Shown piece by piece: positions 26,801-38,800 of a DNA stretch of 64,000 nt; within the stretch, counting starts at the first letter, position 1, and each line of letters starts with the position of its first letter. The stretch comes from an uncultured bacterium (GTDB taxonomy: Bacteria > Krumholzibacteriota > Krumholzibacteriia > Krumholzibacteriales > Krumholzibacteriaceae), in the NCBI GenBank assembly GCA_963813815.1, contig CAWFAD010000011.1:32001-96000 (forward strand), in the 5' to 3' direction. The position numbers were made by a program.

Positions 26801-29800
26801 ACCGCCCTTGCCCTGAGCTTGGAGCGGCGGGGGAGAGCCGGCGAGTCGAACGCCTCCATCGACCGTTACTTGTTGACGCGGGGGCTCATCATCGCCGCGC
26901 TCGATCCGATTCTCATTTCATGGCTCTTCGGCTACGGCGGGATCATGTTTCAGGTCCTCTATGCGATCGGCATATCGCTCATTGTGATGATCCCGCTGAG
27001 GCGTCTCGGATCGAGTTGGCTCTTGGGAACATCCATGGGGTTCATTCTGCTGAGCGAAGCCCTGACCGGAATCCTGCACAGTCTCAACAACGGTCGGCCC
27101 ACGGCGATAGGAACCCTATTGATCCACGGCGGCGTGTATCCTCGTCTCATCGTCTCGTATCCGGTGTTCCCATGGCTCGCGGTGATGATGCTGGGCTTCG
27201 TGTTCGGGAAGAGGCTGCTGCGCTTCAGAGACTCCGGATCGACGCGATGGTCTCCTGCAAAGGCGCTTTTAGCGAGCGGAGCAGCCTCATTGCTCGCATT
27301 CAGCGTCATACGAGATTTAAATGGCTATGGGAATATGATGCTTCTCAGGGAGAGCGGCTCTCTCATCCAATGGCTTCACGTCAGCAAATACCCACCGAGC
27401 TTGTCGTTTCTGACGCTGGAGCTCGGACTGATGGCGCTCGTTCTGAGCCTATTATTCGGGCTTCAAGGCAGGTCCCGCGGACCGATACGGATAAATAGTC
27501 CGATACTCGTTTTCGGGCAGACGGCATTCTTTTTCTATATTCTGCATATCGTGATTCTCGAGCTTTCGGCTCGGGGCCTGCGCGTCCATGCGAGCAGGGG
27601 CCTGGGAACCGCGTACCTAGCGGCGGTGGCCGTTCTCGTTCTTCTCTATCCCTGCTGTCTCTGGTATCGGCGCCATAAGGCTTCCCACCCGAATGGCTGG
27701 GCGCGCTATGTTTAGAGCCCGGGCGACGCTCGATCGATCCCCCCGCGGCGGAGGGGGCGAGAGGCCCATCGAGCGGGACACAGGAGAGCCTAGCCGTTTT
27801 ACTGAATCTCCCTCGACTGCTCGTCGAAAAGGACGCGGTAGAGGCCGCCCGCCTGATAGAGCGTGTTGTGCGTGCCCGACTCGACCAGCCTGCCTTCGCT
27901 CAGCACGAAGATACGGTCCGCGTTCGTCACGCTCGTGAGGCGGTGGGCGATGATGATGACGGTTTGGCCTCTCACCTTCTCGAAGTAGCTCCCGAGCACC
28001 TGCCGCTCCGTGCGCGGATCGAGGGCGGAGGTGGCCTCGTCGAGGACGTGGATGCGGGGCGCCTTGAGGAGCGACCGCGCGAGCGCGAGCCGCTGGCGCT
28101 CTCCGCCCGAGAGGCGGAGCCCCTGCTGGCCGACGATCGTCTCGAGCCCCTCCGGCAGATTCGCGAGAAACTCCCCGAGAGAGGCCGTCTCCATGGCCGC
28201 GACGAGCTCCGCCTCCGTGGCCCGCGGCCGGGCCATCCGCAGGTTCCCCGCGATCGTGTCGTGAAACAGCTGCGTCTCCTGCGGAACGACGCCGATCGCG
28301 CGGCGGAGGCTCTTGAGCTTCCAGCGCCTGAGGTCGAGATCGTCGATGTAGACCGCGCCTTGCTGCGGATCGAGGTAACGGGCGATGATCGCGGCGAGCG
28401 TGGATTTGCCGCTTCCCGAGGGACCGACGAGCGCGATCACCTGCCCCGGCTCCACCGAGAGACTGATATTCTCTATCGCCCTCGCGCCGTTGGGCCACGT
28501 GAGGCCGACCTGCTCGAGGCGGATCGCGCCCGTGACGCGGGGCGGCGCCGTCGCCTCCGCGTGCTCCTGAATCTGCGGTTCCGTGTCGATGAGGTCGTAC
28601 ACTCGGGCGAGCGACGCCCTCGCCATCTGGAGCTCGATGTTGATGTCGATGAGCTGCGAGATCGGCCGGTAGAGACGGCTCGCGAGCGTGTAGAACGCCA
28701 CGAGACTGCCGAGGCTGAGCGTTCCGCCGAGCACCCGTCTGCCTCCCATGAGAAATACGAGGATAAAGGCGCCGGTCGACATGACGTCCGCGAGCGAGAC
28801 TTGTCCCGCGCCGATCACGGAGAGGGCGAGGTTGCTGCGGATCCACGGCCGCGACACGCGGACGAGGCGGCGGGTCTCGGCCTTCTCCCGGATAAGTTCC
28901 TGAACGAGGCGGATGCTCGAAATCCGCTCCTCGAGAAACGAGAAGAGGTCGGAGATCGCGTCCCTCGCCTTGATTCCCTCTTCCTGAATGCGGTGGTTGA
29001 TTTTCGCGAGGATGGCGACGAGGAACGGATAGACGAGGAGGAGCAGGAGCGTGAGGCTCGGATCGATCCAGAAGAGGATCGTCAATATCCCGACGATCGT
29101 CAAAACGTCCTGAATCGCGTTGACGATCGTGTGGGCGGCCGCGTGCTGGAGCACGTCGATGTCGGAGCTGATTCTCGCGAGTATGTCGCCCGTCTGCTCT
29201 CCGCGGAAGAAGAAGGGGGAGAGGCGTTCGACGTGCTCGAAGGCCTGCCGGCGGTAGTCGAAGAGGATCCGAAGCCCCGAGTAGCTGTAGAGCCAGACCG
29301 AGATGAGACGGAATCCCGTGCGAAAGACGAGCACGCCGAGAAGTATGGACACGAGCATGAGAAGAAGCGAGTAGTTGCCGTCGCCGATCGCGCGGTCGAT
29401 GATGGTTCGCAGGATCAGCGGATCGATCAGGTTGAGAAAGACGTTGATGATGAGGCAGACCGCGATTTCGGCCTGAAGGCCGTAGTAGGGGCTCACGCGC
29501 TCGCGGAGGAAGCGCCGCAAGAGCCCGCGTCGGCTGGGATTCGCCTGTTTCATCGCTTCTTCGTCCCGGCGAGCCTTTCGATGAGGAGGTGGCCGAGAGA
29601 GACCTTCTCATCGACGATGATCCGCGCCTGCCCTTTCATTCCGTCATAGAGCGGGCCCGGCGCGGTCGAGGGGTCGAAGGACACCTTTACGGGAAAGCCG
29701 CCGCCGCTCCGGCAGTCGTCCACGAAATCGAGCCGCCCGGCGAGGGTGCCGTGGAGAAGCCAAGGGTATCCCTCGAGCCGGATTTTGACCCTGTGTCCGG

Positions 29801-35800: not shown

Positions 35801-38800
35801 CCGGGGCACGCGGAGCTGCACCGGGCGGTCTTGCTCGAGGCGCTCTCGATGCTCGAGGACGCGCGCGAGCCGGGAGAGGTCCGCGCGTCGAACAACGCTT
35901 GGCGCAAATCGCCGGCCGGCCCGGAGGCATGAGCCGGCGGCGTCCGCGAAGGAGGCTCCGGTATGGCGCTCAAGGTGCTGGGGATAGCGGGAAGCCTGCG
36001 AAAGGGCTCGTACAACCGGGCGCTGCTCAGGGCCGCGGTCGAGCTCGCCCCGGAGGGAATGACGATCGAGATAGCCGAGATCGACGGGATCCCCCCCTTC
36101 AACGAGGACCTCGAGAAGCAGGGGATGCCGCCCGCGGTCGCGGAGCTCAGGCGGCGCGCGGCGGAGGCCGGCGCCCTGCTCATCGCGACCCCGGAGTACA
36201 ACCACTCGGTTCCGGGCGTTCTCAAGAACGCCATCGACTGGCTCTCGAGAGGCTCCGACCAGCCGCTCGACGGAAAACCCGCCGCGATCATGGGCGCTTC
36301 GACCGGTATGATCGGCACGGCCCGCGCTCAGGTGCATCTGCGGGATCTGGCGGTCACGGTGAACATGGCCGTGCTCGCCCAGCCGGAGGTGCTCGTCGCG
36401 CGCGCCGGAGAGCGGTTCGACGGGCGCCCCGAGCTCACGGATGAGCCGACGAGGCGGCGCGTACGGGCGCTGCTCGAGGCCCTGCGGGTCTGGGCGACGG
36501 CTCTCGGGGAACGGAAATAGCCGGGAAACGGCGGCATTTCTTCATTTCACAAGTAGTTTGCTCCCGGGTCGCCCCCCTTTTACATTTGATATGGAAACGC
36601 CCCCTGTGATAGCATTCGCCGAGCTTTGGGAGGAAGTGGAGGAATTTGCGTAATGAAGCATAGATTTGCCGTTGCCGCGGCGCTCGCGGCGGCCATCCTC
36701 GGGGCGTCGGGAGCCCTTGCGCAGGGGCCCGGTTCGGTCGTGCCGGGGGCCGCCCCCGGGCAGCAGCGAGCCGCGGCGGCGGGGGCCGTCATCAGCCGCA
36801 TCGAGATCACGGGGAACCATTTCGTGTCGCGGCAGAACATTCTCCAGATATTTGGAATCCGGGCGGGGGACGAGGTGCGGGAGGAACGCGTCAGCGAGGC
36901 CATCAGGCGGCTCGTGCAGACGAAGAACTTCGCGGATGTGTCGGTTTCGGCCCGGACGTCGGGGGACAGCCTCATCGTCGTGCTGGCCGTGGAGGAGTAC
37001 CCTCGCGTCAAGGAGATCCGCGTTCAAGGGACCGACAAGGTCAAGCGCGAGGACATCGAAGGGAAAATCCTGCTCAAGGAGGGATACTTCGCGCGCCCCG
37101 CCCTCTTCTCGCAGGACGTCGCCGCGATCAAGGCGCTCTACGCGGAGAAGGGGTACAACAACGCCTCCGTCGAAGTGAAGAAGATCGCGGTCGGCGACGC
37201 GCACAACGTCGTCGTCGCGTACGCGATCGCCGAGGGGAAGAAGATCAAGATCAGACACATCGACTTTCTCGGCGTGGGGTCCATCGAATCGCCCGAGCTT
37301 CGCAAGATGATAGAGACGAAGGAATCAAGGTGGTGGCGGGGCGGAGAGCTCAAGCCCGCGACCCTCGACGCGGATCTCAAGCTCATCAAGGAGTTCTACG
37401 GCACGCGCGGCTACCTCGACGCCGAAGTCTCGGTAGCGAAACAGGAGCAGTCGGGCGACGGCAAGCATCTCGATCTCTACATTCGGGTCGACGAGGGGCC
37501 GCAGTACCGTCTCGGCGCTCTCACGTGGTCGGGCAACACGATCGTCAAGGACGAGGAGATACGGAGCTTCGTTCACATCGAGAAGGGGGATCCGTTCGCG
37601 ACGGACCGGATCGAGATGCTGCAGTACGACATCAACGGCAAGTACTGGGAGCAGGGATACATCTACAGCCGCGTTATCCCGGTGCGGCGCGTCCGCAACC
37701 GGCGGATCGATCTCGCACTCCGCATCGAGGAGGGGAATCCCGCTTCGATCAAGGAGATCAAGATCTCGGGCAACACGAAGACCTTCGAGACCGTTATCCG
37801 GCGCGAGCTCAAGACGTATCCGGGCGACCGGTTCATCCTCACCGACGTGCAGCGGAGCCTCCGGGAAATCGTGGCCCTCGGCTACTTCAGCGGGCCGCCG
37901 AAGATCAATACGGAGCAGGTGAACGAGCAGGGGGACATCAACCTGCTCATTGCCGTCGAGGAAAAGCAGACGGGCAACTTCCGTTTCGGAGCGGGATTCT
38001 CGCAGCTCAACTCGCTTTCGGGCTTCTTCGGGGTTCAGGAGAACAACCTCTTCGGGCGCGGCAAGGGCGTCTCCCTCGACTGGGAGTTCGGCAGGTACCG
38101 CGAGAGCTTCAATTTTCAGTACACGGAGCCGTACTTCCGGGGCACGCAGAACACCGTGGCGTTCTCGCTGTACAACTGGATTCAGGACCGAGTGCAGCAG
38201 CAGTATTACACCGACCGCCGCAAGGGCGCCTCGCTCTCGCTCGGACGTCCGGTCCCGTGGCTCGATTACACGCGCCTCTACTCGAGCTACCGCCTCGAGC
38301 AGGTGGAGCTTTCCAACTTCTCGACCCTCTATCCCGACATGGGCGCCCTCCGGGGCGTCGAATGGCCGCAGGTGAAGAGCAGCGTGCTGCTGAGCCTCAC
38401 GCGCAACTCGACCGACAACCCCTCGCACCCGACGAAGGGATCGGTGAACACGCTCAGCGCCGAGTTCTGCGGCGGCGTGCTCCAGGGGAACGTGAAGTAC
38501 ATGCGCTTCATGGCCGAAACGTCGTGGTTCCGCACGCTCTTCTGGAAATTCACCCTCCACATGAATATGGAGCTCGGCGCGATCGACGGATACCGGAACC
38601 CCGACGAGGTGCAGGATTACGAGAAGTTCCGGCTCGGCGGCAACCGCCGCTACGCGCTCCGCGGCTACGATTACTACGAGGTCGTTCCCGAGGGGAACGA
38701 CGCGTACGTCGGCGGGCGTTTCATGGCGAGCTTCACCCACGAGCTGCTCTTTCCGTTCACCGACGCCGTGTACGGCCTCCTGTTCTTCGACGCCGGAAAC

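Follow-up and report, generated by a model that had tools for sequence, protein, structure and literature searches.

A gene cluster on an insert of approximately 14.4 kb in the genome of an uncultured environmental bacterium probably encodes a hybrid graspetide/thioether RiPP that is modified by several enzymes and then exported. The chemical steps proposed for it are drawn from homology and from invariant residues. A PsnB-like ATP-grasp ligase would phosphorylate an invariant Glu in the precursor core and close a side-chain lactone onto an invariant Thr seven residues upstream. This ligase and a catalytically dead paralogue, g1196, probably form a hard-wired asymmetric pair, in which g1196 would hold or present the peptide. 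A radical SAM/SPASM enzyme would form a thioether between at least one of three invariant Cys residues and a carbon atom in a neighbouring residue, and a PrdB-like CxxC protein may carry out thiol redox reactions on whichever Cys residues are left or on an enzyme–peptide intermediate. An HlyD/ABC pair would export the product. No published description of the cluster was found in literature searches or in the available supplements of two graspetide surveys.

Locus architecture and distribution

Six precursor genes on the minus strand (30679–31770) face a plus-strand operon encoding g1196 (31867–32778), the radical SAM/SPASM peptide maturase (32808–34175), the ATP-grasp ligase (34163–35113) and the PrdB-like protein (35132–35932). 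Alongside the precursors, also on the minus strand, lie genes for an HlyD-family periplasmic adaptor (29550–30620; TIGR01843 2.2e-15, below cut-off) and a 584-residue ABC exporter (27799–29553), the latter comprising a transmembrane domain (Pfam ABC_membrane, residues 30–295) and an ATPase (ABC_tran, residues 361–509). Of 26 genome loci, 17 carry the exporter alongside the cluster at 55–76% identity, as does locus L019, and the HlyD gene is co-conserved beside it. The exporter has no N-terminal peptidase domain, and no protease gene lies within the cluster in this genome. An initial annotation of this DNA had placed all of these cluster genes correctly, and its scores against TIGR04463, TIGR04334, TIGR04187 and TIGR04483 were reproduced at the values given below; its count of five precursors and its second ATP-grasp enzyme did not stand.

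In three congeners (G071, G072 and G070), a ClpC homologue of 90–91% identity lies about 200–600 bp from BamA; the distance between the two matches is 211 bp in locus L059 and up to about 540–560 bp in L060 and L061. As ClpC directly adjoins BamA in these congeners, the ClpC–BamA interval at 22155–36625 is an insertion, which supports the earlier view of the cluster as an accessory island. The maturase is likewise absent from the congeners, as had been claimed: 208 genomes from the phylum include 12 with a match at E ≤ 1e-30 (G000 counted), and none of the 15 congeners has one. The same insert also carries a gene for an NADPH-dependent FMN reductase (35963–36520, plus strand; Pfam FMN_red 8.7e-44) that is outside the conserved cluster; in the related loci nothing beside the cluster matches it by tblastn, and it was not found in four congeners.

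Maturase orthologues of 58–74% identity are present in G037, G038, G113 and G125, with fragments of 60–65% identity in G128. The order g1196, maturase, ATP-grasp, PrdB-like is identical in G037, G113 and G125, and G038 follows it until its contig ends, which leaves out the PrdB-like position. The related locus described previously was recovered in G037 (L019), with precursors containing ITLCAQCSENPRFC and RCCLCSENPRFC.

The cluster type occurs in at least three phyla. Searches seeded with the PrdB-like protein gave 26 genome loci, from Planctomycetota, Acidobacteriota and Krumholzibacteriota, all of which contain the cluster where the contig permits: the ATP-grasp gene is present in 25, the maturase gene in 24 and g1196 in 19, and each absence coincides with the end of a contig. 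The PrdB-like gene adjoins the ATP-grasp gene in 25 of the 26; in five Acidobacteriota loci, other genes and opposite-strand precursors lie between the two. The ATP-grasp enzyme, used as seed at ≥49% identity, gave 21 metagenome loci, of which 12 show the PrdB-like gene and eight lie on contigs that are too short; at locus L076 no such gene lies within 12.7 kb. No g1196, ATP-grasp or PrdB-like gene lies within 8–9 kb of six more distant maturase homologues (29–37% identity; L023–L028). The four enzyme genes are thus a set conserved across phyla, and the initial caveat that g1196 and the PrdB-like gene might be mere neighbours no longer applies.

Precursor peptides

The six precursor genes, all on the minus strand, encode peptides of 34 residues (precursor 1; 31666–31770; MRFVV leader, core TRCWLCHEEPRAC), 38 residues counted from the ATG at 31645 (precursor 2; 31529–31645; core TLCALCSEDPHWC), 32 residues (precursor 3; 31389–31487; core TMCFLCKENPLAC), 32 residues (precursor 4; 31039–31137; core TRCAQCSENPIFC), 35 residues (precursor 5; 30885–30992; core TLCWLCKENPAAC) and 36 residues (precursor 6; 30679–30789; MKFVV leader, core THCMQCAEYPPAC). 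Precursor 1, the one missing from the earlier count, begins with MRF, shares the core of the other five and is concealed within a long spurious ORF. When the window (the whole 64-kb stretch of DNA that was analysed) was translated in six frames, the pattern C..C.[EDQ].P..C matched six times, each time inside the array, so the array is more than a chance occurrence. From reading of the sequence, a GGAGG-like ribosome-binding site precedes every precursor gene by 6–9 nt (6/6).

The 5′ end of each precursor ORF is a 15-nt direct repeat (D2) present in seven copies, six in the genes and one in a relic of a precursor 5′ end (31501–31515, minus strand) that reads IKFIV, with ATC replacing ATG. A 251-bp gap splits the array and contains a perfect hairpin with a 13-bp stem (31283–31312, minus strand) and a promoter-like site (31253–31225, minus strand). 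These elements may represent an attenuator or terminator with an internal promoter after it.

A common pattern unites 62 peptides from 22 sources: a leader beginning MKF[IV]V, and the core T-x-C-x-x-C-x-E-x-P-x-x-C. In the six precursors of this locus the leader is about 20 residues long. Numbered from the first Cys of the core, Thr(−2), Cys0, Cys3, Glu5, Pro7 and Cys10 are found without exception in 62/62 precursors, and leader residues Met1 and Phe3 in all 48 that were aligned. The invariant Thr was absent from the motif first described. Hypervariable positions separate the invariant residues, the tails beyond the final Cys range in length from 0 to 11 residues, and as many as 12 diversified precursors share a locus. 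At L051, a locus complete in all other respects, no precursor lies within 18.7 kb. Like g1196, the precursors have no Pfam or NCBIfam match, as first reported, and for the precursors this holds even at E 10. The proposal that the cluster is of RiPP type and its precursors form a new family is supported.

Radical SAM/SPASM maturase

The maturase aligns over its full length with two curated families, but below the cut-off of each: TIGR04463, the closest (299.6 bits; cut-off 525), and the Clo7bot maturase family TIGR04334 (294.1 bits; cut-off 600). All three Fe–S cluster motifs are kept. In 17 orthologues, residues Cys104, Cys108 and Cys111 (CX3CX2C) are invariant, as are Cys289, Cys332, Cys351, Cys392, Cys395, Cys401, Cys405 and Cys420. 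CrpC, a member of TIGR04463, is reported to install ranthionine-type thioethers from Cys to residue i+3 (PMC13692751). By analogy, the likeliest thioether here would link Cys(+3) to residue +6. Position +6 is Tyr in 5/62 precursors and Glu in 1/62, so such a linkage would need a tolerant acceptor.

If the maturase alone modified the peptide, this would be an ordinary thioether (ranthipeptide or sactipeptide) cluster, and the ATP-grasp pair and PrdB-like protein would serve another linked function, for example immunity, regulation or the making of a small-molecule co-substrate. The three Cys residues are the most obvious targets, the enzyme is related over its full length to families that form thioethers (PMC13692751), and the PrdB-like and ATP-grasp genes stand apart in the five Acidobacteriota loci. 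This explanation is nevertheless unlikely, given that the four genes are co-conserved over three phyla with the partners missing beside more distant maturase homologues, that the ATP-grasp enzyme resembles PsnB in particular and retains the Arg that binds the core, and that the invariant Thr and Glu have the spacing of a plesiocin ring.

The ATP-grasp pair

In profile searches against the PDB, PsnB is the best solved relative of the active ATP-grasp enzyme (E 3.1e-39, residues 4–308); RimK matches only its C-terminal half in the same search (E 4e-14 to 2e-11). Its match to the ATP-grasp RiPP maturase family TIGR04187 (3.7e-15, 55.9 bits) misses the cut-off of 350. Residues Lys127, Lys167, Asp268, Glu282 and Asn284 are invariant. 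Invariant Arg209 aligns with PsnB Arg213, which is described as binding the ring-forming carboxylate, and Asp232-x-Arg234 aligns with the PsnB DFR loop (residues 233–235), although Ser or Thr here replaces Phe or Trp in the middle of this D(F/W)R loop. PsnB is reported to form Thr–Glu lactones on a TTxxxxEE core, the outer ring joining T31 to E38 (i,i+7). The invariant Thr and Glu of the precursors have the same i,i+7 spacing as this outer ring of plesiocin, and together they point to a PsnB-type Thr–Glu lactone. The two residues could equally be thioether acceptors instead, as Thr and Asp/Glu are for SCIFF- and PapB-type enzymes.

It is quite improbable that this enzyme is a RimK-type amino-acid ligase that extends the Glu side chain or the peptide C-terminus with further residues and forms no lactone. 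RimK is its sole Pfam match (1.1e-6), NCBIfam gives TIGR00768 (rimK_fam) at 1.4e-12, and the variable precursor tails would suit C-terminal additions. The full-length PsnB match, however, is far stronger than the RimK match, and the graspetide-specific Arg and D-x-R loop are retained.

The second ATP-grasp enzyme of the initial annotation, g1196, is a full-length paralogue in which the ATP-grasp catalytic positions are not conserved. It aligns with the active enzyme over 284 columns (hhalign probability 98.6%, E 5.8e-16), and the best Foldseek matches of its AF2 model (pLDDT 93.6) are the graspetide ligases PsnB (E 1.5e-15), PruB and MdnB/C. The protein, whose family has 81 representatives, probably acts as a non-catalytic partner or substrate-binding subunit. 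MirB/MirC provides a reported precedent for a graspetide synthetase that depends on a partner protein (PMC13097080).

The PrdB-like protein

PrdB is the best curated match of the fourth enzyme (TIGR04483, 94.1 bits; cut-off 300), and all 30 of its Atlas matches fall in GRDB clusters, placing it in the GRDB superfamily. Residues Cys171 and Cys174 are present in 28/28 loci that cover this stretch, and the resulting CxxC falls approximately where PrdB has its selenocysteine.

A CxxC motif together with one more Cys and an acidic side chain is a classic metal site. The precursors might be metal- or redox-active thiol peptides of a metallophore- or cofactor-like kind, with CxxC...C free for metal and the triad reduced or loaded by the PrdB-like protein through its own invariant CxxC; the FMN reductase adjoining the cluster in this genome would fit. 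This is less probable still than a RimK-type ligase. The diversified, hypervariable precursors are typical of secreted peptides and not of a cofactor, the FMN reductase does not share the cluster's conservation, and relatives of the maturase are reported to consume Cys thiols (PMC13692751).

The PrdB-like enzyme was originally proposed to reduce the invariant core Pro in a Stickland-type step, but nothing connects the protein to that residue beyond the invariance of Pro(+7) and the PrdB match itself. Proline reduction is reported to require the pyruvoyl subunit PrdA, to whose pyruvoyl group the free secondary amine binds, and the Sec151Cys variant of true PrdB is inactive (PMC11229817). None of the conserved loci contains a PrdA-like gene or any further conserved family; a PF09338 search of this genome gave no match, nor did its positive control. 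As the microviridin core motif TxRxPSDxDE also has a conserved Pro (bioRxiv 10.1101/2021.03.09.434688), a structural role for Pro is the simpler explanation. With a peptide-bound Pro that lacks the free amine, a Cys in place of Sec and no PrdA-like partner, a reductive step on Pro is very improbable.

Implications

The cluster brings together an unusual set of enzymes: a radical SAM maturase, a pair of ATP-grasp ligases of which one is live and one dead, and a Cys version of a proline-reductase subunit. In the best reading, a hybrid graspetide/thioether pathway, these enzymes would combine two known cross-linking chemistries with a third step of another kind.

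Genomic setting of the cluster

The cluster consists of two facing groups of genes. An ABC exporter of 584 aa (27799–29553), an HlyD-family adaptor (29550–30620) and an array of small precursor ORFs (30679–31770) lie on the minus strand. Four genes diverge from the far side of a 96-bp gap on the plus strand: g1196 (31867–32778), a radical SAM (rSAM)/SPASM gene (32808–34175), an ATP-grasp gene (34163–35113) and a PrdB-like gene (35132–35932).

In the congeners G071, G072 and G070, a homologue of the window's ClpC (19692–22154; 90–91% identity) lies near BamA. In locus L059 the BamA match is 211 bp away, and the distance reaches about 540–560 bp in loci L060 and L061. 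BamA starts at 36626 in the window. Because ClpC lies within a few hundred bases of BamA in three congeners, the segment 22155–36625 is an insertion of about 14.4 kb. Four further genes of the insert, at 22364–27715, are absent from the site in these three congeners. They encode a membrane protein (22364–23131), a lipoprotein (23242–23913), an 813-aa repeat protein with a C-terminus similar to a secretion-sorting domain (23944–26385) and an acyltransferase-3/HGSNAT-like membrane protein (26576–27715). The insert also carries an FMN reductase that was not found in four congeners; it was rejected as a pathway member, since related loci do not have it next to the cluster.

Conservation and distribution of the gene set

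Matches to the rSAM protein at E ≤ 1e-30 were obtained in 12 of 208 genomes of the phylum and in none of 15 congeners. Orthologues of 58–74% identity occur in genomes G037, G038, G113 and G125, and the order g1196, rSAM, ATP-grasp, PrdB-like is repeated around them, accompanied by HlyD, ABC and precursor genes; G128 has fragments. Six more distant homologues (29–37% identity) have no partner gene within 8–9 kb. All cluster members form a single clade in the rSAM tree (100/100), a branch of length 1.8 sets it apart from its closest paralogues in the phylum, and the subclades track phyla roughly.

Those nearest paralogues (35–37% identity; L023:7763–10181 in genome G092 and L024:7454–9811 in genome G095) adjoin a second rSAM gene and, in G095, an ABC exporter as well. 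They belong to a different peptide cluster, since ATP-grasp and PrdB-like genes are absent there.

A search seeded with the PrdB-like family alignment, A1, with one genome per species, gave 26 loci, spread over Planctomycetota, Acidobacteriota and Krumholzibacteriota, plus a few bins with odd labels. The ATP-grasp gene lies upstream of the PrdB-like gene in 25 of them, and the 26th contig begins within the PrdB-like gene. The rSAM gene was found in 24 of the 26, g1196 in 19 and the ABC exporter in 17, with every miss falling at a contig end. The converse search of metagenome contigs with the ATP-grasp protein yielded 25 loci, of which 21 had an identity of ≥49%. Among these 21, the PrdB-like gene is present in 12, eight contigs are too short to tell, and one lacks it. 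In this last locus (L076:9001–12732) the ATP-grasp gene is followed by a gene for an HExxH protein and then directly by an ABC exporter on the opposite strand, with no PrdB-like gene in the 12.7 kb up to the contig end. All-against-all ORF clustering of 28 loci gave no further family common to most, in output cluttered by shadow ORFs of GC-rich DNA.

On a 2.2-kb metagenome contig (L085:68–1893), a distant ATP-grasp gene (32–34% identity) stands with a distant PrdB-like gene (37%), in reading frames that look broken or poorly assembled. The pair hints that the PrdB-like protein is tied to the ATP-grasp step, and the pairing may extend past the present cluster family.

Precursor array and precursor family

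The initial annotation counted five precursor genes, one too few: a sixth, at 31666–31770 (MRFVVKPLLGTRGSNSTHLTRCWLCHEEPRACEE), had been masked by a long spurious ORF. A GGAGG-like site lies upstream of each gene (6/6), and six-frame translation of the 64-kb window gave six matches to the core pattern, all inside the array. None of the six peptides matched a Pfam or NCBIfam model even at E 10. The 15-nt ORF start recurs in a seventh copy at 31501–31515, just 5′ of the ribosome-binding site of the third precursor (31389–31487), reading IKFIV with ATC replacing ATG. This copy is a relic of an earlier duplication, which suggests that the array grows and shrinks through recombination at the conserved leader start.

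Perfect GC-rich hairpins with 12- and 13-nt arms separate precursor genes at 30816–30844 and 31283–31312. The second hairpin falls in a 251-bp gap that divides the array and also contains a promoter-like site (31253–31225, minus strand); the array may comprise two transcription units. None of the 12 sequencing runs listed is of RNA, and one DNA run contains 0.57 of the sampled words.

The precursor family numbers 62 peptides from 22 sources, with one to 12 precursors per locus. The start reads M-[KRQ]-F-[IV]-[IV], and Met1 and Phe3 are invariant in the aligned sequences (48/48). The core is T-x-C-x-x-C-x-E-x-P-x-x-C; numbered from the first core cysteine as position 0, Thr(-2), Cys0, Cys3, Glu5, Pro7 and Cys10 are each present in all 62 peptides. 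Position 4 is Ser in 50 and position 8 is Arg in 46 of the 62, while position 6 is held by Asp (44), Asn (12), Tyr (5) or Glu (1). Between 18 and 35 residues precede the first core cysteine, and 0–11 follow the last. A fourth cysteine stands at position -7 in 17/62 precursors, mostly from Acidobacteriota (sources among loci L029, L033, L035, L037, L044 and L052), as well as in a peptide of L066 from a later metagenome scan; it suggests an additional cross-link in that branch. One locus, L051 (18750 bases), has the full enzyme and exporter set, yet no precursor with the family leader or core was found within 18.7 kb.

The active ATP-grasp enzyme resembles PsnB

Among solved structures, the active ATP-grasp family is closest to the plesiocin macrocyclase PsnB (PDB 7DRM–7DRP), which the family profile, A3, matched over its full length at E 3.1e-39. 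RimK was matched over the C-terminal half only, at about 1e-11 to 1e-14, and PruB and MdnB/C were also matched. Among curated models, the protein scores 55.9 bits against TIGR04187, below the cut-off of 350. Across 19 orthologues, the nucleotide-binding lysines and the Mg-binding residues (K127, K167, D268, E282 and N284) do not vary. In the HMMER alignment, Arg213 of PsnB (residue 233 of the 7drm chain, through a 20-residue tag offset) pairs with invariant R209. Similarly, D233 and R235 of the PsnB DFR loop pair with invariant D232 and R234, the middle residue being Ser or Thr here as against Phe or Trp in D(F/W)R.

According to the available text of bioRxiv 10.1101/2021.03.09.434688, PsnB phosphorylates Glu and closes Thr–Glu lactones on TTxxxxEE, with an outer ring, T31–E38, of i,i+7 spacing; Arg213 grips the ring-forming carboxylate, and leader binding depends on a Phe. 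The precursors described here carry a putative graspetide donor and acceptor at the same i,i+7 spacing, Thr(-2) and Glu(+5), each in 62/62 peptides. The resemblance to the plesiocin system, so far as that text describes it, extends from the ring spacing to the invariant leader Phe and the retained equivalents of Arg213 and the D-x-R residues. The two systems differ in that a single Thr/Glu pair replaces TTxxxxEE, and in that three invariant cysteines and a proline lie inside or beside the putative ring. In addition to its active ATP-grasp enzyme, the present cluster encodes a paralogue that is catalytically dead, together with rSAM/SPASM and PrdB-like proteins.

g1196 is a degenerate ATP-grasp paralogue

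The g1196 protein has no Pfam or NCBIfam match, and BLASTP against the neighbouring ATP-grasp protein gave nothing significant, so the kinship of the two is visible by profiles only. Profile alignment of the two families spans 284 columns at a probability of 98.6% (E 5.8e-16). Correspondingly, an AF2 model of g1196 (pLDDT 93.6) has the ATP-grasp fold, with PsnB as its closest structure (E 1.5e-15), followed by PruB, MdnB/C and RimK.

The initial annotation had counted g1196 as a second ATP-grasp enzyme, which it is not: the fold is that of the family, but the catalytic residues are missing. The K127 position is Pro in 41 of 49 sequences, and the K167 position is Leu, Arg or Ile. At the R209 position stands Thr, Ser or Glu; D232 falls in a gap, and R234 is lost too. 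The Mg ligands D268/E282/N284 are replaced by S/L/E in the local alignment and by G/P/S in the global alignment. The family has invariant residues of its own, W73-P74-Q75, R97 and L102, and the WPQ motif falls within a lower-confidence loop of the model, residues 67–88. By position, this loop would correspond to the β6-α3-α4 region of PsnB, which, in the portion of the bioRxiv report available (10.1101/2021.03.09.434688), becomes ordered only on binding of the core peptide.

Because the ATP-grasp fold is kept and the catalytic positions are lost, g1196 is read as a putative non-catalytic partner of the synthetase. A precedent for such a role is found in the MirB/MirC system of rosaritide, where, in the available text of PMC13097080, the graspetide synthetase needs, and co-purifies with, a co-encoded non-catalytic partner. 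The likeness would lie in the role alone: MirC is there described as a SurA-like chaperone-domain protein, whereas g1196 is itself a synthetase paralogue that has degenerated.

The rSAM/SPASM enzyme and the predicted thioether

The rSAM protein matches two curated families over its full length, below the cut-off of each: TIGR04463 at 299.6 bits (cut-off 525) and the Clo7bot maturase model TIGR04334 at 294.1 bits (cut-off 600). The family scores of the initial annotation (TIGR04463, TIGR04334, TIGR04187 and TIGR04483) were reproduced exactly on rescoring. The SPASM domain model TIGR04085 was passed, at 59.6 bits for a cut-off of 27. In 17 orthologues the CX3CX2C motif (C104/C108/C111) is invariant, as are the SPASM cysteines C332, C351, C392-x2-C395-x5-C401-x3-C405 and C420, which account for two auxiliary clusters.

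The available text of PMC13692751 describes CrpC, a member of TIGR04463, as binding three [4Fe-4S] clusters and linking Cys by a thioether to the third residue downstream, a bond that its authors assigned as ranthionine. Because CrpC links Cys to residue i+3, and Asp or Asn occupies that place relative to Cys3 in 56/62 precursors, a thioether from Cys3 to residue 6 would be the most likely link. The enzyme resembles CrpC and the Clo7bot maturase in its full-length similarity (about 300 bits against either model), in the CX3CX2C motif with the full set of SPASM cysteines, and in a Cys-rich substrate. It differs from them in that its substrate is a peptide of 32–49 aa, not a large repeat protein, and in that it is always paired with ATP-grasp genes and forms a separate, long-branch clade.

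The PrdB-like protein

The PrdB-like family is large and tight, with 142 clusters at E ≤ 1e-3, the best 120 of which lie at E < 1e-70. Two stretches, L-L-P-T-C-S-L-C-V-Q and F-P-F-G-A-P-x-G, are invariant in its alignment. The best curated match of the window's protein is PrdB (TIGR04483; 8.8e-27), with residues 45–252 on profile positions 24–229, at 94.1 bits for a cut-off of 300. Feature matches of the protein in the Atlas fell to GRDB clusters in 30 of 30 cases. Carried over linearly from the TIGR04483 alignment, C171-x-x-C174 would fall about where Sec151 of PrdB does. Both cysteines are present in all 28 loci covering that stretch, and residue 171 is encoded throughout, the window included, by a Cys codon and not as the selenocysteine of PrdB.

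An AF2 model of the protein (pLDDT 91.9) places the CxxC between a strand and the N-terminus of a helix. Such a junction is the usual position of a redox-active CxxC. No solved relative emerged from PDB profile searches (best E 0.51, a chance level) or from Foldseek at E ≤ 0.001, and VIA-align gave only generic Rossmann/LacI-like matches (Z ≤ 9), from which no function can be drawn. No solved structure was found for the GRDB superfamily as a whole. The additional cysteines of the protein (179 and 221) do not clearly covary with the number of precursor cysteines.

A Stickland-type step on the invariant proline had been proposed for this protein. As described in the available text of PMC11229817, true PrdB requires the pyruvoyl subunit PrdA, a variant with Cys in place of Sec does not reduce proline, and PrdA in turn needs PrdB to cleave itself by cysteinolysis. 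No PrdA-like gene was seen with the cluster in the 28 loci whose ORFs were clustered, in output cluttered by shadow ORFs. The PrdA model PF09338 gave no match in the source genome, G000, but none in the control genomes either; the GRDB model PF07355 was silent in G000 and in the controls, and missed the window's own PrdB-like gene too. Because PrdB needs PrdA and no PrdA-like gene was seen in these loci, the step on the invariant proline is not supported.

The kinship with PrdB (D-proline reductase; GRDB superfamily, PF07355) lies in the best curated match and in an invariant CxxC that would be placed approximately at Sec151. The present protein departs from PrdB in its Cys-type site, in the apparent lack of a PrdA, PrdH and PrdC context, and in always adjoining RiPP genes. 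With low confidence, it is assigned a thiol-based redox chemistry on peptide cysteines or on an intermediate.

Leader removal and export

The Pfam ABC_membrane match begins at residue 30 of the exporter, so this protein lacks a peptidase domain; the window's cluster contains no protease. In 12 related loci, five from genomes and seven from metagenome contigs, a HExxH protein of about 380 aa is encoded after the ATP-grasp gene, and all five genome loci are labelled Acidobacteriota. The example in L029 (7844–8974, plus strand) has the motif HELAH, with homologues in L033, L044, L052, L053, L064, L065, L066, L073, L076, L079 and L080. Neither a Pfam match nor a homologue in the window was found for this protein, a candidate leader peptidase.

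Relation to known clusters

An ATP-grasp ligase, a SPASM-domain protein and ABC/HlyD export also occur together in the Grasp-with-SPASM clusters of Bacteroidota, termed 'branch 5' by Makarova et al. 2022 (PMC8939145) and graspetide group 14 by Carter et al. 2026 (PMC13097080). In the available parts of these descriptions, such clusters encode a small protein of the LPL family and 'cluster 23' lipoproteins, and combine leaders of the GG type with exporters that carry a C39 peptidase. The present cluster lacks both the GG motif and the peptidase domain and belongs to other phyla, a distinction drawn from these published descriptions. The available text of both papers, searched supplement text included, makes no mention of a GRDB or PrdB-like protein. 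The two searchable supplement files of Carter et al. 2026 contain no precursor strings and no GRDB, PrdB or selenoprotein-B term; the same holds for 11 supplement files of Makarova et al. 2022, one of them available in part, apart from an unrelated pfam04328 entry.

Both graspetides and rSAM thioether peptides are RiPP classes that have been studied well. No characterised pathway was found that joins a PsnB-type lactone and an rSAM thioether on one 11-residue core, and no description of the cluster was found among the openly accessible papers searched. The cluster is a real, conserved RiPP cluster and is apparently undescribed. We infer, for all of its chemistry, that it fuses graspetide and rSAM-thioether logic.

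Significance

The dead copy of a graspetide synthetase raises the enzymological question of its role. Since PsnB already acts as an asymmetric dimer, the copy could represent that asymmetry fixed by gene duplication. The second enzymological question is posed by a Cys-type homologue of a Stickland-reductase selenoprotein in peptide maturation; to our knowledge, the GRDB superfamily has no role outside amino-acid reduction. It is conceivable, though we consider it rather unlikely, that this homologue is a new RiPP tailoring enzyme recruited from amino-acid fermentation, in which the Cys171 thiolate and Cys174 would perform carbon-directed thiol chemistry on the peptide, and which, with a live/dead synthetase heterodimer, would define a new RiPP class in at least three phyla. 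On that reading, the Cys pair could resolve, edit or reductively open a C–S or C–N bond made by the rSAM enzyme, or could aid a cysteinolysis-type cleavage of the leader, as PrdB does for the self-cleavage of PrdA.

Both questions are directly testable by co-expression in E. coli. The cluster family is widespread in little-studied phyla: it occurs at 26 genome loci and about 20 metagenome loci, its PrdB-like proteins form more than 140 clusters, and g1196 has 81 representatives. It also offers a natural diversity of as many as 12 precursors at a single locus.
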